A DNA stretch of 5,645 bases from Clostridia bacterium (lineage in GTDB: Bacteria > Bacillota > Clostridia > Christensenellales > Aristaeellaceae). The stretch is taken from positions 19,795-25,439 of the forward strand of contig JAUNDF010000030.1 of the NCBI GenBank assembly GCA_030526225.1. The letters run 5' to 3'. A program made the position numbers and the translations under genes. Positions 1 through 5,645 of the stretch are shown here, in pieces; the stretch's first letter is position 1; each line of letters begins with the position of its first letter. The notes beneath the pieces are model-generated. The model worked only from the letters and a program-made list of their open reading frames with translations, was not told the DNA's origin and made no database searches.

Positions 1-568
1 TGGGTTTGCCGCAGTGGGGGCAAACGGGCAGCAGCGCCGTGGGGATGCGCATATCCTGCTGATGGGCGACCATCTGCCGGATGATGGCCTCGTTGTCGAA
101 GGTCTCCTTGCAGCAGGGGGTGCTGCACTGGAACAGGCCGTAATCCCCCTGGGTGTAGAACAGGCGCTGTTTGTCGAACCCGGCCTTCTGAAAGCAGTGA
201 TCCACATTGGTGGTGATGACGAAGTAGTCCTTGTCCCGCACCAGCTGCAGCAGGGTGTCGTAGACGGGCTTGGGGGTATCCTCATAGCGGTTGATGTGGA
301 TGTAGCGGCTCCAGTAGGCCCAATGCTCCTCCGGGGTTTCATAGGGATAGAAGCCGCCGGAGTACATATCCGGGATACCGTAGACCTCGGCGAAATCCCC
401 GAAGTGCTTCAGAAAGCGCTCGCCGCTGTAGGTGAAGCCTGCCGATGCGGACAACCCTGCACCTGCGCCGATGAGCACCGTGTCGCAGGATTGCAGAGCG
501 GAGGTCAGCTGGTCAATCAGCCCGGAGCAGTCGGGTGTAGATGTCCTTGTCTGTGTCCTTGAAAACAT
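1..568 (-). CDS. sirTM: Class-M sirtuin (SirTM-type Sir2-family protein mono-ADP-ribosyltransferase). N-terminal ~189 codons only; the 3' end runs off the window.
   Basis: Absent from the supplied ORF track because it is open to the window edge. My manual minus-strand translation from ATG 568..566 gives MFSRTQTRTSTPDCSGLIDQLTSALQSCDTVLIGAGAGLSASAGFTYSGERFLKHFGDFAEVYGIPDMYSGGFYPYETPEEHWAYWSRYIHINRYEDTPKPVYDTLLQLVRDKDYFVITTNVDHCFQKAGFDKQRLFYTQGDYGLFQCSTPCCKETFDNEAIIRQMVAHQQDMRIPTALLPVCPHCGKP. It carries the Rossmann GAGAG motif, TTNVDH, QGDYG, and a Zn-ribbon Cys pattern (C..CC...CPHC). From memory it is collinear with the Streptococcus pyogenes SirTM. An SD-like AGGTGA (575..580) sits 6 nt upstream of the ATG. 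The start overlaps the macro gene by 56 nt, so its exact position is less certain than the product call. Confidence 0.85.
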   Translation of the reverse strand, partial: MFSRTQTRTSTPDCSGLIDQLTSALQSCDTVLIGAGAGLSASAGFTYSGERFLKHFGDFAEVYGIPDMYSGGFYPYETPEEHWAYWSRYIHINRYEDTPKPVYDTLLQLVRDKDYFVITTNVDHCFQKAGFDKQRLFYTQGDYGLFQCSTPCCKETFDNEAIIRQMVAHQQDMRIPTALLPVCPHCGKP

Positions 569-1307
569 TGAAAATCACCTTTTTGATACTCGTTTGCTGT
601 GTCATAAATTCCCGGACGGTCTGCAGCGCGATTTCTGCCGCCAGCTCATTGGGGAAGTGGAATTCTCCGGTGGAAATGCAGCAGAAGGCTACGCTTTCCA
701 GCTGGATGTCTGCCGCCAATGTCAGGCAGGCGCGGTAGCAGGAGGCCAGCAATTCCTTGTCCTTCTCCGTTACATCGCCCTGAATGATGGGCCCCACGGT
801 GTGCAGTACATACCTGCAGGGCAGATTAAAGGCCGGGGTGATTTTGGCCTGCCCTGTGGGTTCGGGATGCCCCTGCGCCGCCATCATGCAGTCACAGGCA
901 CGGCGCAGCTGCACCCCGGCAAAGGTGTGGATGGCGTTGTCGATGCAGCGATGATTGGGGGCATAGCAGCCGGTCATACCGCTGTTGGCGGCGTTGACGA
1001 TGGCATCGCACCGCAATGTGGTGATGTCCCCCTGCCACAGGTACAGCCCCGGCTGAAGGGGCGTCAAGTCGTCGACATCGGTGATGCCCTTCGATGCGAT
1101 TTCCTCCTTCAGGTATTCATCCTGCACGGCCAGAAAATCATCGCTGACAGGATCGGCCTCCCGGATGTTCATCAGCCCCCGGAGCATCAGCCACTGGCTT
1201 TCCGCATCCGTGGGAATGCGCCGTCCGCGAAAATCCCGGTTCTCATCCAGCAGGGCGCGCAGCAAAAACCGCCTGCGCCGGGCTTGGGTCATGGGTTGTT
1301 CGTTCAT
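513..1307 (-). CDS. MacroD-type macrodomain protein-ADP-ribose hydrolase (the SirTM-partnered class).
   Basis: This is the ORF-track entry 513..1319. Motifs seen: WQGDITTL..DAIVNAANS..G, HTVGPI and CCISTGEFHFP, the macrodomain ADP-ribose-binding signatures. The N-terminal helical extension (RRRRFLLRALLDENRD...LRGLMNIREADPVSDDFLAVQDEYL) matches, from memory, the S. aureus/S. pyogenes SirTM-operon macrodomain. I prefer ATG 1307..1305 (MNEQPMTQ...) because GAGGTG (1312..1317) lies 4 nt upstream and the resulting length matches homologues. The alternative ATG 1319 forms an ATGA overlap with the DUF1848 stop. Confidence 0.9.
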   Translation of the reverse strand: MNEQPMTQARRRRFLLRALLDENRDFRGRRIPTDAESQWLMLRGLMNIREADPVSDDFLAVQDEYLKEEIASKGITDVDDLTPLQPGLYLWQGDITTLRCDAIVNAANSGMTGCYAPNHRCIDNAIHTFAGVQLRRACDCMMAAQGHPEPTGQAKITPAFNLPCRYVLHTVGPIIQGDVTEKDKELLASCYRACLTLAADIQLESVAFCCISTGEFHFPNELAAEIALQTVREFMTQQTSIKKVIFNVFKDTDKDIYTRLLRAD

Positions 1308-1315
1308 GGGGCACC

Positions 1316-2248
1316 TCATTCAAACAAGGTCAGCTGACGGTCGATGTAGGATTCCTGCCGGGCTTCAATCACCGTGTCGCCGGGCTGTGCACCACCGATG
1401 AGGAAGGGCGAGGCCGGGTCGTGTCGGCGGATGTTGCGCTCTACGGTTTTGCGGTCATAATTGGCGTAGCAGTAGATGCAGCCGTGGGGACAGGTGTTGT
1501 ACATGCCGATGTCGGCCCCCAGCAGGCAATTGCACTGGCTGCGGGTGGATTTCTTCGACCTGGGCACACGGAGGCGGCAGTCAGCGGCCTTTTCCAACAC
1601 GGCTTTCGTCATGCAACCGGATACATCTGCGCCGAATTCAGCCAATGCGGCGTTCTCACAGCAGGTGCGGATGGGAATGCCGTATCTCATGCCGATTTTG
1701 ACGAAAGCCTCCATCAACGCCGCCTGCTCCAGGGTGCTGACCGCCCGCACGGAGGGGAAGTTCCGCTTCGTCTTCTCGTACAGGTCGATGAAGCTGATGA
1801 CGCAGAAGCTCACCTTGCCGGCCATGGTGGATGCCATCCGCTCGAAGGACTTGATATGGAAGTCCATGGAATACTTCTCTGTGATGAAGATGGGGTCATA
1901 ACGCCAGCCCACAGCTTTCGCACCCACCTTTTCAGACAGCTGCGACACGGACTGCATCACCTTTCCGCAGTCCGGCACAAAGGGCTCAATTTCCCGGCCG
2001 TAGGGGGTAACGGTGACGAACCAGAACTGCCGGAAATCGTCCAGCTCGCTCAGGCGGGGCAGCATGGGGGCAGGGTTCTTCGTGCAGAAGCACAGGATAT
2101 CCACCACCTTGGGGTCCAGGCGATAGCGGATGACCTGATTGGGATGGTAGGGGTTCCGGGTGCACACAAAGCCCTCTCGGATGCGGTTGTAGAACCAATC
2201 GCTGTAATAGGCCGGAATGTCCGTCCGGCAGCCGGTGTTGAGTATCAT
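1316..2248 (-). CDS. DUF1848-family protein with a C-terminal CX3CX2C cluster (putative Fe-S / radical-SAM-like enzyme, function unknown).
   Basis: This is the ORF-track entry 1316..2263. The N-terminus MILNTGCRTDIPAYYSDWFYNRIREGFV..RNPYHPNQV is the DUF1848 signature as I remember it. The C-terminal NTCPHGCIYCYAN motif (C258/C262/C265 in track numbering, nt 1469..1492) has canonical CX3CX2C spacing, with upstream CNC and CC pairs. I prefer ATG 2248 (GGAG at 2258..2261, 9-nt spacer) over TTG 2263. Confidence 0.8.
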   Translation of the reverse strand: MILNTGCRTDIPAYYSDWFYNRIREGFVCTRNPYHPNQVIRYRLDPKVVDILCFCTKNPAPMLPRLSELDDFRQFWFVTVTPYGREIEPFVPDCGKVMQSVSQLSEKVGAKAVGWRYDPIFITEKYSMDFHIKSFERMASTMAGKVSFCVISFIDLYEKTKRNFPSVRAVSTLEQAALMEAFVKIGMRYGIPIRTCCENAALAEFGADVSGCMTKAVLEKAADCRLRVPRSKKSTRSQCNCLLGADIGMYNTCPHGCIYCYANYDRKTVERNIRRHDPASPFLIGGAQPGDTVIEARQESYIDRQLTLFE

Positions 2249-2846
2249 GGAGATTCGCTCCAATTCGCAGAATGCGGCCCTCCTTGCGGGGCTTGGGGGT
2301 GGGATGCTTGTCGCCGGTGCGGGGATAGCCCAGCAGCAGCTGCATCACGGCGTAATGGGTGGCGGGGATGGCCCAATCCCGCAGGATTTCCTGCCCGTAG
2401 GGGTCGGCAAAGGCGCCCCAGCCCTCCCCAATATAGCACGAACCGATGCCCAGCGCATCCCCCGCCAGCATCATATTTTGGGCGGCCAATGCGCAATCCT
2501 CCTTGGCGAAGAGGAAGTTCTTCGGGGCAAAGAGGGTGATGACCGTGGGCGCGCCGTAGAAGGCATCGGTGATGGATGCGTCATCCGCAATGCTGGGCTG
2601 CTCCCGGGAGACATAGTTGTTGCCCTGTGCCATGCGGGGATGGGCGTTGGCCCGCTTGATGCGGCCAAGACGCAGATTGACCTCCCTGTCCTGACACACG
2701 GCGAAGAGCACGCCCTGCCGTCCTCCGGCACTGGGGGCATACAGCCCGGCCTCAAAGATTTGCTGCAATGCGCCTTCCTCAAGCTGCCGGTCATCAAAGC
2801 GTCGGATGGAGCGGCGGTGGCGGATGGTGTCCATCACGGATGTCAT
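1986..2846 (-). CDS. Nitroreductase-family FMN oxidoreductase. The recognisable domain is roughly codons 1-195. As sequenced, the ORF continues about 90 further codons into the DUF1848 gene in another frame.
   Basis: N-terminal IRHRRSIRRF and APSAGGRQ motifs are typical of the NfsB/NfnB-like nitroreductase fold. The C-terminal LLLGYPRTGDKHPTPKPRKEG resembles the usual end of such proteins. GAGGAGG (2854..2860) lies 7 nt upstream of ATG 2846..2844. That ATG overlaps the stop of the upstream gene as ATGA. The 3' end is doubtful because the tail after about nt 2262 is P/G/H/R/L-rich and overlaps DUF1848 by 263 nt. Confidence 0.8.
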   Translation of the reverse strand: MTSVMDTIRHRRSIRRFDDRQLEEGALQQIFEAGLYAPSAGGRQGVLFAVCQDREVNLRLGRIKRANAHPRMAQGNNYVSREQPSIADDASITDAFYGAPTVITLFAPKNFLFAKEDCALAAQNMMLAGDALGIGSCYIGEGWGAFADPYGQEILRDWAIPATHYAVMQLLLGYPRTGDKHPTPKPRKEGRILRIGANLHDTQHRLPDGHSGLLQRLVLQPHPRGLCVHPEPLPSQSGHPLSPGPQGGGYPVLLHEEPCPHAAPPERAGRFPAVLVRHRYPLRPGN

Positions 2847-3409
2847 TTTGCGGCCTCCTCATCAAAGCGGTTGGGCAGATAGTAAACCTGTCGGGGCAGG
2901 CTTTCGGAGAAGGAGTTGAACTCGGCCCACACCTCGGTCAGGTAGTAGCCGATAACAAATTCCCGGCGGTCGCCGAACTGGGAGGTCAGCACCGGGCTTT
3001 CCTCAAAGCAGCGGTTGATGATGTCCTCATCCTTGGTGAAATTCACCTTGCCGCCCAGCCGCACATAGGTCATGGTCTCCTGATCGCAGATGCACAGCTG
3101 GATATAGGGGTGGGCCAGCAGCTCGGCGTAGGTGCTGTAGAACACCACGGTGTCGAAGTACAGCACGCCGTCCTGCTCGAACTTGAATTCGATGGGGCGA
3201 ATCTGCGGATTGCCGTCGGTGCCCAATGTGGCGGCATACTGCAGGGGGAAGCGCTCAAAGACCCTGGTCACCACCTCAAGGCCGTTGTCAAAATTAAGGG
3301 ATTCAAAAAAGGCAAGGTTGCTCATAGGCTCCTCCTCACACAGGGCAGAGGGAATCAGCGCGGTCAGCATCAGCAGGGCGCACAGCAGCGCAAGGCATTT
3401 CTTCATCAT
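2843..3409 (-). CDS. Pyridoxamine-5'-phosphate-oxidase-like (FMN-binding split-barrel) family protein with a hydrophobic signal-peptide-like N-terminus.
   Basis: The core FPLQYAATLGTDGNPQIRPIEFKFEQDGVLYFDTVVFYSTYAELLAHPYIQLCICDQETMTYVRLGGKVNF resembles small clostridial PNPOx-family proteins (pattern ..YLAT...G.P.VRP..F....G.LYF.T.....Y..L..NP.V......G...R..G.A.F). The N-terminus MMKKCLALLCALLMLTALIPSALC has signal-peptide n- and h-regions. AAGGAG (3418..3423) lies 8 nt upstream of ATG 3409, which overlaps the rSAM stop as TGATG. A second possible start is ATG 3325 (MSNLAFF...), preceded by GAGGAGGAG. Confidence 0.65.
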   Translation of the reverse strand: MMKKCLALLCALLMLTALIPSALCEEEPMSNLAFFESLNFDNGLEVVTRVFERFPLQYAATLGTDGNPQIRPIEFKFEQDGVLYFDTVVFYSTYAELLAHPYIQLCICDQETMTYVRLGGKVNFTKDEDIINRCFEESPVLTSQFGDRREFVIGYYLTEVWAEFNSFSESLPRQVYYLPNRFDEEAAK

Positions 3410-4443
3410 CAGTCAAGCTCCTTCCAGCATTGGGGGTCGGCGGCGTAGAAGTTGCCGTCCTTGCCGCTGGCCACGGCGGGACAGCCCCGGCACCAGCCCA
3501 GCAGCTCGCACCGGCTGCATTTCTCGAACTTCGTGTAGTCACGGTACTGCTCCATCTGGCACACCCATACATCAGCCAAAAGGTCGGTGAACACATTGGC
3601 CACCTTGCTGTTCTGTACCCGGCGGCAGGCGTACACATCGCCCGTAGGCAGGATGGTCAGGTGGCAGTTGCCGCAGTTGCAGCCGCCGTACACCATGCCA
3701 TCCTCGGCGTAATCCGGGATTTTGAACGCGCCGGTTTCGTACTCATACAGGGTCCACAGGTGGTCCTTCTTGTTGAAATACGTCTGGCATCCGGCAGCCT
3801 CGTATGCCTTGAATTTGGCATCGCAGTCGGCCAGCAGCTGACGATAACGGAGCGGCTCGATGCCCACATCCTTATCCTCAGCCGTGGGGCAGTACCGGGC
3901 AAAGGCGAATACATTCACACCCGCTGCCACCGCCGCATCAATGATGCCGGGGACCTCGTCGATGTTCTTGTCGGACACGGTGGTCATCACCACAGAGCGA
4001 ATCCCCGCCCGGTTGATGCAGCCGATTTTCTCCAGGGTGATGTCAAAGCTGCCGGGCTTGCGGAACCAGTCGTGGGTCTCCCGCAGACCATCCAGGGACA
4101 ACTGATACTTCTCACAGCCATGCTCCTTCAACCGTCGGCACACATCATCCGTCAGGTGGAAGGGGTTGCCCAAGATGGTGAAGGGGATGCCGTGCGCCTT
4201 CATCAGCCCCAACAGCTTCCAGAAATCCGGGTGCAGGATGGGATCGCCGCCGGTGATGTAGAAGTAAGGCAGGCGGTCATACGCCTTGCAGAAATCAAGG
4301 CAGTTATGGAAGGTGTCCTGCATCTGGTCCCAGGTCATGGCATCCAGCTTCTTGCTGCAGTCCTCGGAGAAAATGTAGCAGTGCTTGCAGCGCTGGTCGC
4401 ATTCGTCGGTGATGTGCCACTGGAAAGAAAAATACTGTTTCAT
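3409..4443 (-). CDS. Radical SAM/SPASM-domain enzyme, the putative maturase of the adjacent ACGX-repeat peptide.
   Basis: CDQRCKHCY gives CX3CX2C at residues 15-22 (nt 4378..4401). YITGGDP is a SAM-binding GGE-like motif. The C-terminal SPASM pattern is C255xC257xxC260-x12-C273 (with G-x4-C), then C309xxC312x5C318xxC321, then C339 (nt 3427..3681). That Cys pattern fits a full SPASM domain with auxiliary Fe-S clusters. GGAGG (4450..4454) lies 6 nt upstream of ATG 4443. Confidence 0.92.
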   Translation of the reverse strand: MKQYFSFQWHITDECDQRCKHCYIFSEDCSKKLDAMTWDQMQDTFHNCLDFCKAYDRLPYFYITGGDPILHPDFWKLLGLMKAHGIPFTILGNPFHLTDDVCRRLKEHGCEKYQLSLDGLRETHDWFRKPGSFDITLEKIGCINRAGIRSVVMTTVSDKNIDEVPGIIDAAVAAGVNVFAFARYCPTAEDKDVGIEPLRYRQLLADCDAKFKAYEAAGCQTYFNKKDHLWTLYEYETGAFKIPDYAEDGMVYGGCNCGNCHLTILPTGDVYACRRVQNSKVANVFTDLLADVWVCQMEQYRDYTKFEKCSRCELLGWCRGCPAVASGKDGNFYAADPQCWKELD

Positions 4444-4501
4444 GGTGAGCCTCCTTGCTTGGCGGGACGCATGTCCGAAAGCACCGCGTTTGCCGTACCC
4501 T

Positions 4502-4539
4502 CGGAAATACGCCCCAGGATGATTCCTCGGGCGTATCCG
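4502..4539 (-). promoter_or_regulatory. Intercistronic RNA stem-loop between the peptide gene and the rSAM gene (candidate attenuator or processing/stability hairpin).
   Basis: On the plus strand, ATACGCCC (4507..4514) pairs perfectly with GGGCGTAT (4529..4536). An inner AGGA (4516..4519) pairs with TCCT (4524..4527), and an outer CGG (4502..4504) pairs with CCG (4537..4539) across a 2-nt bulge. It begins 6 nt after the peptide stop codon. There is no U-tract after it on the minus-strand RNA, so it is not a canonical intrinsic terminator. Confidence 0.55.
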
Positions 4540-4544
4540 GCTGA

Positions 4545-4757
4545 TTACTTGTCGCCGGCACCACAGGCAGAGCCGCAGGCAGCGGGAGCCTGAGCGGGCT
4601 TGTCAGCGGCACCGCAGGCAGCGGGCTGCTCGGCAGGCTTATCGGCGGCACCGCAAGCGGAGCCACAGGCAGCAGCGGGCTTATCGGAAGCACCGCAGGC
4701 GGCAGCAGGAGCGGCTTCGGCCTTCTTGGCCCAGCCGAAGAGGTTGGAAAGAGCCAT
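4545..4757 (-). CDS. ACGX-repeat peptide (70 aa, six Cys), a putative radical-SAM-modified precursor or carrier peptide.
   Basis: Translation from ATG 4757: MALSNLFGWAKKAEAAPAAACGASDKPAAACGSACGAADKPAEQPAACGAADKPAQAPAACGSACGAGDK. GGAGGG (4765..4770) lies 7 nt upstream of the ATG. There are six A-C-G-[A/S] motifs, and the gene sits immediately 5' of a radical SAM/SPASM gene on the same strand. The 120-aa version in the ORF track (to 4907) runs through the upstream terminator and has no RBS, so I use the shorter form. Confidence 0.85.
   Translation of the reverse strand: MALSNLFGWAKKAEAAPAAACGASDKPAAACGSACGAADKPAEQPAACGAADKPAQAPAACGSACGAGDK
4548..4706 (-). repeat. In-frame degenerate tandem repeat encoding the ACGX/DKP modules.
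   Basis: Related plus-strand units are gcgggcttgtcagcggcaccgcaggc (4594..4619), gcaggcttatcggcggcaccgcaagc (4633..4658) and gcgggcttatcggaagcaccgcaggc (4675..4700). They are spaced 39 and 42 nt apart (13 and 14 codons). The protein modules are AAACGASDKP / AAACGSACGAADKP / AEQPAACGAADKP / AQAPAACGSACGAGDK. Confidence 0.8.
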
Positions 4758-4781
4758 GGTTGTACCCTCCTTTTTATTTGT

Positions 4782-4817
4782 CAGACAGTATGTTTCCCTG
4801 TCTGCAAGGTTATTGTA
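4782..4817 (-). promoter_or_regulatory. Candidate -10 box plus a 7-bp inverted repeat in the 5' leader of the peptide gene.
   Basis: Minus-strand TACAAT (plus 4812..4817) lies 55-60 nt upstream of the ATG. No good -35 is present; a T-run sits at the expected distance. The perfect inverted repeat CAGACAG (4782..4788) / CTGTCTG (4798..4804), with a 9-nt spacer, lies between the putative -10 and the RBS. It could be an operator or a 5'-UTR hairpin. Confidence 0.3.
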
Positions 4818-4877
4818 GCGGATGGCAGACATGAAAAAAAGTACGCACTTTTTTGTAACCACCCCCTCATTCAGGAC

Positions 4878-4916
4878 AAAAAAGGGCAGGAAGACGGACG
4901 CTGCCATCTTCCTGCC
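4878..4916 (-). terminator. Rho-independent terminator of the upstream hypothetical gene.
   Basis: A perfect 10-bp stem, GGCAGGAAGA (4885..4894) with TCTTCCTGCC (4907..4916), encloses a 12-nt loop. On the minus strand it is followed by C then TTTTTT (4878..4883). It starts 15 nt after the TAA stop at 4932..4934. Confidence 0.85.
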
Positions 4917-4931
4917 AAAGGGGGTTACCGA

Positions 4932-5645
4932 TTACTGATACAGCATGCCGGCAGACATTTCCAGATAGTTCTCGCCAACATACTCGGGGAAGGCTTCCTT
5001 CATGGCAGCCACGAAGCCCTCGGCAGTGTCGTTGGCCTCAGCCAGCTCCTTGGCGGTGGCCACATAAGCCAGCTTCTCGGTCACGGCATCCTGACCTTCC
5101 ACACCGCTGTGGGAGGAGAGAATCATGTCATAACCGGCAGCCTGATACTCCTTCAGGATTTCGGTCATCACATCCATGTGAGCGGCACCGGCCATGATGG
5201 AGTGGCAAGTCTTGCCCAGCATGTGGGTGTAGATGGCGTTCATGGAGGGGATTTCCAGATCGTAGGTGTCGCCGCGGTCAATCAGGTTGAAGTCGATACC
5301 GGCCACATTCACGGTGCCGGACACCACATTGTTGATGTTGGCCATGTCGGGGCCGCCGTGGAACACATCGCCGAAGGTCTCGTACAGGCCCTGGGTGGTG
5401 GCAAAGGTGGAGCCGGAAGCGATGGCATCCTGAGCACCCTGAGTGCCGTAGATGGTCATGCCCTCCACATAGCTGGCACCGGTGGCATGGTCGCACAGGA
5501 ACAGGTCGTTCATGGGCTTGTTCAGGGAAGCAATATAGCCCTTCCAGGCATCCAGGCTGTCGGTGAAGCTGGGCAGCTCGATGCCCACCAGTGCATCAGC
5601 GCCTTCCACGATGAAGGCCACATCGCCCAGAGCATCGCCGGTGGC
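4932..5645 (-). CDS. Hypothetical protein, C-terminal 237 codons; the 5' end runs off the window. It may be a degenerate metallo-beta-lactamase-like fold.
   Basis: The ORF-track entry 4932..5621 starts at an internal GTG. The frame stays open to the window edge (..ATGDALGDVAFIVEG..). Amino-acid composition looks like real coding sequence. The only fold hints are weak ones (VAFIVEG..ALVGIE, LFLCDHATG, MILSSHSG) vaguely reminiscent of MBL-fold strands and motifs. The terminator downstream makes it a separate transcription unit. Confidence 0.6.
   Translation of the reverse strand, partial: ATGDALGDVAFIVEGADALVGIELPSFTDSLDAWKGYIASLNKPMNDLFLCDHATGASYVEGMTIYGTQGAQDAIASGSTFATTQGLYETFGDVFHGGPDMANINNVVSGTVNVAGIDFNLIDRGDTYDLEIPSMNAIYTHMLGKTCHSIMAGAAHMDVMTEILKEYQAAGYDMILSSHSGVEGQDAVTEKLAYVATAKELAEANDTAEGFVAAMKEAFPEYVGENYLEMSAGMLYQ

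Follow-up and report, generated by a model that had tools for sequence, protein, structure and literature searches.

The stretch of DNA analysed here, called the window throughout, comprises 5,645 nucleotides from a Clostridia bacterium (contig JAUNDF010000030.1, positions 19,795 to 25,439). Its minus strand encodes a 70-residue peptide built from ACGX units and, downstream of it, a radical S-adenosylmethionine (SAM) enzyme with a SPASM domain, here termed the maturase; further genes follow (Table 1). The peptide (MALSNLFGWAKKAEAAPAAACGASDKPAAACGSACGAADKPAEQPAACGAADKPAQAPAACGSACGAGDK) is read from the ATG at 4755-4757 to the TAA at 4545-4547. It matches the NCBIfam model TIGR04341, 'ACGX-repeat peptide', with 87.7 bits against a cut-off of 28, residues 1-70 aligning to profile positions 1-65. 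The maturase matches TIGR04340 with 601 bits (cut-off 400; residues 3-342 on profile positions 1-340). Pfam PF27855 was found on all 120 peptide homologues listed, several of which bear the name 'ACGX-repeat peptide' at NCBI or JGI, and the peptide homologues amount to 1,284 protein clusters. Look-ups for identical copies of the peptide, the maturase and the macrodomain protein gave no record. Judged by these models (TIGR04341/TIGR04340, PF27855), the two genes are almost certainly members of a curated two-gene ACGX system. The window copy agrees with this system in gene order, leader and repeats, and both proteins score above the curated cut-offs. It differs by the insertion of a PNPOx-like and a DUF1848 gene and by the lack of an adjacent HxlR gene within the window; such a gene may lie past the right edge. 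The preliminary description of this DNA made a real observation but missed the curated family: the element adds a member to a family already named in databases and is not a new kind.

Table 1. Features of the window and the evidence for each
Feature	Position	Strand	Basis
SirTM (class-M sirtuin), N-terminal 189 aa, cut by the window edge	1..568	-	frame translation, tblastn
Zn-macrodomain protein-ADP-ribose hydrolase	513..1319	-	NF003163, 357 bits (cut-off 272)
DUF1848 protein	1316..2263	-	PF08902, 322 bits
Nitroreductase-family flavoprotein, tightest-linked accessory gene	1986..2846	-	PF00881, 84.5 bits
PNPOx-like protein, hydrophobic N-terminus	2843..3409	-	PF01243, 34.8 bits
Radical SAM/SPASM maturase of the ACGX system, 344 aa	3409..4443	-	TIGR04340
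Two adjacent GC-rich stem-loops in the peptide-maturase spacer	4474..4537	-	folding
ACGX-repeat precursor peptide gene, 70 aa + stop	4545..4757	-	direct reading; TIGR04341
Repeat core, residues 18-70 (A18-K70)	4548..4706	-	direct translation
Module 4, double, ACGSACGAGDK, C-terminal, most conserved unit of the family	4548..4580	-	translation
Module 3, single, ACGAADKP	4596-4619	-	translation
Module 2, double, ACGSACGAADKP	4635-4670	-	translation
Module 1, single, ACGASDKP	4677-4700	-	translation
Conserved N-terminal leader-like region, residues 1-17, MALSNLFGW...	4707..4757	-	alignment
Shine-Dalgarno sequence GGAGGG, 7 nt before the peptide ATG	4765..4770	-	sequence reading
Terminator-like hairpin and T-run closing the upstream gene	4885..4916	-	13-bp stem, 8 GC pairs, then CTTTTTTGTC

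Adjacency was followed in 80 species-level genome loci (L001-L080). The peptide lies directly upstream of the maturase in 74 of them. Upstream DNA amounts to 470 nt in one of the other six, L012, and to less than 300 nt in the remaining five. Wherever the upstream DNA sufficed, the two genes were neighbours.

The spread of the maturase was determined by scanning one genome per species, and the resulting count is a lower bound. At least 587 species-representative genomes carry a relative, mainly in Oscillospiraceae, Lachnospiraceae and other gut Clostridia, plus Pyramidobacter. The homologues form 3,598 clusters at E below 1e-10, the top 120 being at least 77% identical, and some clusters hold thousands of member sequences. 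The pair is therewith among the most widespread orphan radical SAM peptide systems of gut Firmicutes. Searches of the searchable literature by name, model accession and peptide sequence string returned nothing relevant, and the chemistry of the ACGX system therefore appears uncharacterised. One apparent match to 'ACGX' was merely a GenBank accession prefix.

Among Oscillospiraceae, Lachnospiraceae, Christensenellales and Pyramidobacter (Synergistota), the maturases of L001-L080 are at least 76% identical, which is unusually high for an accessory gene. This degree of identity between families suggests strong constraint, horizontal spread, or both. Three short contigs are labelled Alloprevotella, Bacteroidaceae and 'Candidatus Brocadia' (L003, L006 and L056). 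Their maturases are 77-88% identical to the Clostridia-type gene, and binning contamination or recent transfer is the likely origin.

Module structure of the peptide

The preliminary description had stated that single and double Cys modules alternate as 1-2-1-2 and that the last Cys of each module stands four residues before an Asp. Translation of the window agreed with every residue named (C21/D25, C35/D39, C48/D52 and C65/D69, as well as C31/C35 and C61/C65), giving four modules with four C-x3-D and two C-x3-C spacings. The peptide contains six ACGX units, with six Cys against four Asp. In shuffles of the 54-residue core, four C-x3-D spacings were reached 7 times in 200,000, a rarity that follows from the repetitive nature of the peptide. 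The underlying DNA repeat is degenerate, again as described: Tandem Repeats Finder reported one 39-nt unit with 2.1 copies and 81% matches (4573-4655).

Conservation of the modules was analysed in three peptide samples of rising diversity. These were 121 close relatives, 73 species-level peptides drawn from directly upstream of the maturase, and 141 representatives, one per cluster at 50% identity, obtained by searching 1.8 billion proteins with a profile. In the close relatives, 442 of 467 modules have an acidic residue at +4, counted from their last Cys (95%; D 413, E 29). The corresponding numbers were 251 of 268 modules (94%) for the species-level peptides and 395 of 441 (90%) for the representatives. 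Alignment of orthologues had been named beforehand as the check on the spacing. With four Cys-x3-Asp/Glu in the window peptide and an acidic residue in 90-95% of the family's modules, the alignments leave the proposal standing, and by these counts the C-x3-D/E spacing is a family rule. The most frequent acidic swap is Asp to Glu. Between Cys and Asp stand only small residues, namely G, A and then A, G or S.

The 1-2-1-2 order is correct for the window peptide but is no rule of the family. It was found in 9 of the 121 close relatives and is absent from the twelve commonest orders of the species-level peptides, which are headed by 2-2-2, 2-2-2-2, 1-2-2 and 2-1-2. These 73 peptides contain 190 double, 75 single and 3 triple modules; 30 of them are made up of double or triple modules alone, and 64 end in a double one. 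Single modules follow the consensus P-A-A-C-G-A-x-D-K-P and double modules P-A-A-C-G-(S 70% / T 23% / A 7%)-A-C-G-A-x-D(93%)-K-P. On this evidence from aligned peptides, the double C-x3-C-x3-D module with two Cys per Asp is the basic unit of the family.

The number of modules per peptide ranges from 1 to 9. The L010 peptide reaches 142 aa, and the smallest natural peptides (L025 and L031) have 30 aa, consisting of the leader and a single ACGSACGAGDK (L025, MALSNLFGWNKKDDTAPAAACGSACGAGDK). The closest relatives, at about 90% maturase identity, differ in peptide length (96 aa in L001, 65 aa in L002, 70 aa in the window). Variation in copy number, which had been suggested between strains, thus exists at the level of species. 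The conserved N-terminal region of 16-17 residues is common to the 74 locus peptides. Residues M1, L3 and W9 do not vary in the alignment, and conservation is 90% or more at A2, S4, N5 and L6. In some database peptides (P0020, P0035, P0247, P0296, P0360 and L016) the repeat gives way to an unrelated C-terminal tail. Frameshifts or assembly errors seem to arise easily in the repeat DNA, and module counts from metagenomes therefore need care.

Signals around the peptide gene

A terminator-like hairpin ends the upstream gene, which makes the peptide the first gene of its own transcription unit. A promoter scan upstream of the peptide gene detected no sigma-70 consensus promoter. The same region contains an inverted repeat (TTTCCCTGTCTGC / GCAGACATGAAAA, 4793-4837) with arms of 13 nt that are 85% complementary and 19 nt apart; it may be an operator. 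The 101-nt spacer between peptide and maturase folds with a minimum free energy of -50.6 kcal/mol (z = -4.41), and none of 200 shuffles folded equally well. Its two stem-loops have no T-tract and the terminator scan made no call there. They may be an attenuator or an mRNA-stabilising element and might set the ratio of peptide to enzyme expression.

The maturase and its relatives

In Pfam the maturase matches PF04055 with 71.9 bits and PF13186 with 26.6 bits (cut-off 21.5). The cluster motif CDQRCKHC corresponds to CX3CX2C, and C15, C19 and C22 are invariant in the alignment. Likewise invariant are the C-terminal Cys residues C255, C257, C273, C309, C312, C318, C321 and C339.

Among the other maturase families, the thio(seleno)oxazole maturase SbtM (TIGR04082) gave 156.3 bits (E 1e-45; catalytic region only, profile positions 198-515 of 516), which is below the cut-off of 350. 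The N-terminal region of SbtM, about 197 residues, is missing, and the enzyme is not a member of that family. It was also compared with AhbD (108 bits, cut-off 500), NirJ (93 bits, cut-off 515) and MftC (75 bits, cut-off 265).

Sequence and profile searches of the PDB revealed no close solved relative. The matches were weak (SkfB 51.7, CteB 44.9 and SuiB 41.1 bits) and, at E below 1e-8 and with the exception of BlsE, were all peptide maturases. An AlphaFold2 model of the maturase was uninformative on chemistry (mean pLDDT 63.5, SPASM half below 50), and Foldseek with this model returned generic radical SAM matches with TM-scores mostly below 0.5, the highest being 0.51. A defence-system reading was rejected; the pVip matches of the maturase reflect generic radical SAM similarity.

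Gene neighbourhood of the cassette

Across the 80 genome loci, all open reading frames (ORFs) from -4 to +6 kb were clustered without prior assumptions, followed by tblastn. Neighbour frequencies refer to the 44 loci with adequate flanks, and four clusters were scanned against Pfam. A divergent HxlR-type regulator was present in 39 of 44 loci; its representative resembles the redox regulators RrpA and RrpB. A nitroreductase gene follows straight after the maturase in 36 of 44 (59 of 80 overall), and in 7 of 44 it is replaced by a quinone-oxidoreductase-like protein, so that one or the other is found in 43 of 44 loci. Further recurrent neighbours are a fusion of a PNPOx-like domain with 2x[4Fe-4S] (24/44), a Sir2-like protein (22/44) and a macrodomain protein (18/44). 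Judged from the cluster sequences and the four Pfam scans, the recurrent families near the cassette in the 80 loci include none recognisable as exporter-like or protease-like.

For the nitroreductase of the window, the relatives were generic structural-genomics entries only, and NCBIfam and Pfam scans gave no family of the azoline-dehydrogenase type. The window-type PNPOx-like gene and the DUF1848 gene, which lies between the nitroreductase and macrodomain genes, were each found in 0 of 80 ACGX genome loci. Together with the upstream genes, which were likewise found in 0 of 80, they were ruled out as members of the cassette; the PNPOx-like and DUF1848 genes are insertions in the window's copy.

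The sirtuin and macrodomain pair

The macrodomain protein matches the PDB entries 8RSI (264 bits) and 5KIV (244 bits). Its 3' end is overlapped by the ATG of the SirTM gene (566-568). By tblastn the SirTM fragment of the window is 70% identical to a locus SirTM; the TTN and TQG motifs are present and the Arg lies beyond the window edge. The locus SirTM matches PDB 5A3A with 245 bits (E 8e-72). Its TTN, TQG and NLR motifs align with the catalytic residues of that structure at N118, Q137 and R192 (chain numbering +10), which correspond to the known catalytic trio of Asn, Gln-Gly (in place of the catalytic His-Gly) and Arg (PMC8120803). The characterised SirTM ADP-ribosylates Asp27 of lipoylated GcvH-L and the macrodomain protein reverses this; the operon contains flavin oxidoreductases and responds to oxidative stress (PMC4518038).

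Linkage was also determined from the other side, in 80 metagenome loci found via SirTM (L081-L160), 39 of which extend 5 kb or more upstream. Only 8 of these 39 contain the ACGX peptide and maturase. The remaining SirTM loci contain HxlR, PNPOx-like, macrodomain and SirTM genes and no ACGX-like ORF. This argues against ACGX as an obligate SirTM target. Moreover, Asp conservation in ACGX peptides is 97% with a linked SirTM or macrodomain gene and 91% without. The simplest reading is that there are two modules, ACGX-radical SAM-reductase and PNPOx-macrodomain-SirTM, each able to stand alone beside a like regulator and often fused. The usual arrangement in these related metagenome loci is HxlR(-) / small PNPOx-like protein / macrodomain / SirTM, with GcvH-L and LplA2 absent. 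The PNPOx-like flavoprotein may be what SirTM targets in these gut Clostridia. The facultative fusion bears on what SirTMs modify in organisms without GcvH-L.

Proposed maturation and its alternatives

The best overall explanation, to which we give about even credence, is that a ribosomal ACGX peptide is matured by the adjacent radical SAM/SPASM enzyme and fulfils an intracellular redox role. The peptide would be the substrate of the enzyme encoded about 100 nt downstream, and that this maturase modifies it is highly probable. The maturase would use a 5'-deoxyadenosyl radical and auxiliary Fe-S clusters and would act at the Cys of each module, Cys being probably the modified residue. A thioether linking the last Cys of each module with the C-beta of the Asp at +4, as made by enzymes like PapB and QhpD, is favoured because the spacing is exact, the intervening residues are small and D and E interchange; as an analogy, this specific bond is proposed tentatively and may well not be the one formed. 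The first Cys of a double module would be left free, act as a cluster ligand or be joined elsewhere. The product would stay in the cell and take part in a response of the thiol, redox or electrophile-stress type, in partnership with the adjacent nitroreductase or quinone reductase and usually controlled by the divergent HxlR-type regulator. An intracellular role in redox or electrophile stress stands at an even balance of belief, because the reductase and HxlR context is consistent and no recurrent export or cleavage genes were recognised.

The thioether had been proposed by comparison with freyrasin, in which PapB joins the Cys sulfur to the C-beta of Asp in six CX3D motifs of PapA (PMC9413430; PMC11002830). 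PapB tolerates Glu in place of Asp, and its native motif is CSAND (PMC9413430). The ACGX system is alike in its repeated C-x3-D, in the small spacers (CSAND versus CGA[AGS]D), in having a radical SAM/SPASM maturase, and in that Glu occurs where PapB tolerates it. The resemblance is thus real and family-wide, but it does not extend to the enzyme or to the ratio of Cys to Asp, and several observations weigh against the bond or against the scheme as a whole. The maturase scores 55.9 bits on the PapB family NF047865 (cut-off 340) and is not a member of it; its best non-ACGX family is SbtM, far above PapB though below the SbtM cut-off. Pfam gave Radical_SAM and SPASM only, and no domain for recognition of peptides that are ribosomally synthesised and modified post-translationally (RiPPs), in the 344-aa protein. 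The radical SAM core begins at about residue 8, which leaves no room for an N-terminal RiPP recognition element. Since double modules dominate, there are two Cys per Asp, and a one-to-one link leaves the first Cys of the doubles unexplained. Acidic acceptors do not match donor Cys in number, with six Cys and four Asp in the window and 190 double against 75 single modules in the family. A(-1), G(+1), A(+2), K(+5) and P(+6) are about as conserved as the Asp, and conservation alone therefore cannot single out Cys and Asp as the reacting pair; the Asp could just as well serve recognition, solubility or metal binding. No experimental work on the ACGX family was found in the searchable literature. 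The setting also differs, as freyrasin belongs to a bacteriocin-like cluster and ACGX to a redox-stress operon without a recognised recurrent exporter or protease.

Some of these points are better accommodated by chemistry of the SbtM kind, or by another chemistry that involves Cys only, which we regard as less probable than the thioether but a serious possibility. SbtM converts Cys to thiooxazole without an acceptor residue (PMC11002830). Each A-C-G unit would be modified independently, for example to a 5-thiooxazole with the preceding carbonyl (-4 Da per Cys). The product would be a poly-heterocyclic thiolate peptide that binds metal or carries redox equivalents, with D-K-P as spacer, recognition element or ligand; the title of a preprint calls thiooxazole peptides metallophores. 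SbtM is the nearest named family outside ACGX (156 bits, versus 108 for AhbD and 56 for PapB) and acts on Cys itself. Such chemistry would account for every Cys in the invariant A-C-G frame, the first Cys of the doubles included. It fits the enzyme similarity and the 2:1 ratio of Cys to Asp better than the thioether does, and it agrees with the family name, which is ACGX and not CX3D. However, the score remains below 350, the SbtM N-terminal region is missing and selenocysteine is absent, and the 90-95% conservation of the acidic residue at +4 is left unexplained. Thioether and thiooxazole make clear mass-spectrometric predictions by which they can be separated. If the Cys-Asp thioether is real, ranthipeptide chemistry would reach a maturase lineage far from PapB and an intracellular, stress-linked role; any other outcome would probably be new radical SAM chemistry. 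The preliminary description had also suggested that the Asp residues accept ADP-ribose. Reversible mono-ADP-ribosylation of the Asp, written by SirTM and erased by the Zn-macrodomain protein, is compatible with either chemistry and would gate the thiol-rich or modified peptide in the way SirTM gates lipoyl-GcvH-L at Asp27. The part of the suggestion that stands is the presence of the enzymes. SirTM occurs in 22 and the macrodomain protein in 18 of 44 ACGX loci, about half, in Oscillospiraceae, Lachnospiraceae and Pyramidobacter and also in the window. The SirTM is a clear relative of 5A3A with the N, QG and R residues aligned, and the macrodomain protein passes NF003163. In the characterised system the Asp acceptor lies beside a sulfur cofactor and its ADP-ribosylation depends on that prior modification, with flavin oxidoreductases encoded in the operon and a response to oxidative stress (PMC4518038). 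Against this, SirTM is not tied to ACGX (8 of 39 loci), and the half of ACGX loci without the pair keep the Asp equally (91% versus 97%). From this facultative linkage and equal conservation, the SirTM/macrodomain pair and ACGX look like co-regulated neighbours rather than obligate partners, and ADP-ribosylation of the peptide is unlikely.

A peptide that stays unmodified and buffers metal or redox state with its free thiols, the radical SAM enzyme having another substrate, is very improbable. Six Cys in 70 residues, C-x3-C pairs and a redox-stress neighbourhood would suit it, but the adjacency of peptide and maturase is essentially constant and their families are curated partners. The leader-like N-terminus is conserved as is typical of enzyme-recognised precursors, and a maturase at least 76% identical between bacterial families indicates a constrained, specific function. 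That the frame is fortuitous, in a GC-rich low-complexity repeat that is no gene, can be given next to no weight. Mirror ORFs do exist on the plus strand (4600-4818) and in a second minus-strand frame (4304-4693). However, the 87.7-bit family match, the strong Shine-Dalgarno sequence and the non-repetitive conserved leader argue for a gene, and hundreds of species retain the frame and its C-terminal ...GDK-stop; together these effectively refute the reading.

Comparison with further systems

The SbtM/SbtA system differs from the ACGX pair in the points already given. SCIFF with its maturase CteB (thermocellin) is alike in combining a small Cys-rich peptide with a single radical SAM/SPASM maturase that is widespread in Clostridia. 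CteB is also among the closest solved structures (44.9 bits). Unlike ACGX, SCIFF has a single, non-repeated core with a Cys-Thr link and belongs to other families with another motif; the alignment starts at residue 100 of CteB, the N-terminal extension of which is missing from the ACGX maturase. We know of no dedicated exporter in SCIFF clusters.

The SirTM/GcvH-L/LplA2 operon of Staphylococcus and Streptococcus (Rack et al. 2015) shares with the ACGX loci SirTM and a Zn-macrodomain protein, flavin oxidoreductases, a small sulfur-rich carrier with a conserved Asp nearby and an association with oxidative stress. Among the clusters that recur from -4 to +6 kb in the 80 genome loci, no GcvH-L and no LplA2 was recognised, as judged from cluster sequences and the four Pfam scans. 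The ACGX carrier would differ in being a ribosomal Cys-repeat peptide made by a radical SAM enzyme, and its linkage to SirTM is facultative: seen from ACGX it is about 50%, seen from SirTM about 20%. A bolder proposal, which we consider improbable, is that the peptide is a radical SAM-matured sulfur carrier, the gut-Clostridia counterpart of lipoyl-GcvH-L. The maturase would equip it with Cys-Asp thioether rings or a different redox group derived from Cys, and the adjacent nitroreductase and PNPOx-ferredoxin protein would cycle it. In loci that have SirTM and the Zn-macrodomain protein, these would switch it via ADP-ribosylation of the Asp beside the modified Cys. If true, this would make a second type of extended SirTM operon, based on a peptide, and the product would be the first of RiPP-like kind to be regulated through ADP-ribosylation. 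To the database label, the analysis adds the C-x3-D/E rule, the double module as unit, natural minimal substrates of 30 aa, and the redox-stress and SirTM context.

Inserted and flanking genes of the window

The nitroreductase ORF of the window is over-long at its 3' end, with 286 aa compared with 200 aa in homologues (e.g. L002 11037-11639). The extra part of about 85 codons overlaps the DUF1848 gene by about 260 nt in a different frame, and it looks as if the DUF1848 insertion removed the original stop codon. The PNPOx-like protein is 31% identical over 101 aa to the PNPOx-ferredoxin fusion, and its gene type is present in some metagenome loci, e.g. L098. Its start overlaps the maturase stop and its N-terminus (MMKKCLALLCALLMLTALIPSALC) is signal- or lipoprotein-like. 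A secreted flavoprotein would be odd in an otherwise cytoplasmic cassette; the PNPOx-ferredoxin fusion of other loci is cytoplasmic and follows the nitroreductase.

In four metagenome loci (L110, L126, L136 and L157) DUF1848 adjoins the macrodomain and SirTM genes. The DUF1848 protein matches the PADLOC model 'RTasDUF1848' with 121 bits, and PADLOC gave nothing for SirTM or the macrodomain protein. The gene upstream of the peptide (4932-5645, minus strand) has no Pfam match and a weak hint of an MBL fold. It is 37% identical (E 4e-51) to a protein encoded between HxlR and the macrodomain-SirTM pair in L108 and L119, which makes it part of the same wider neighbourhood.

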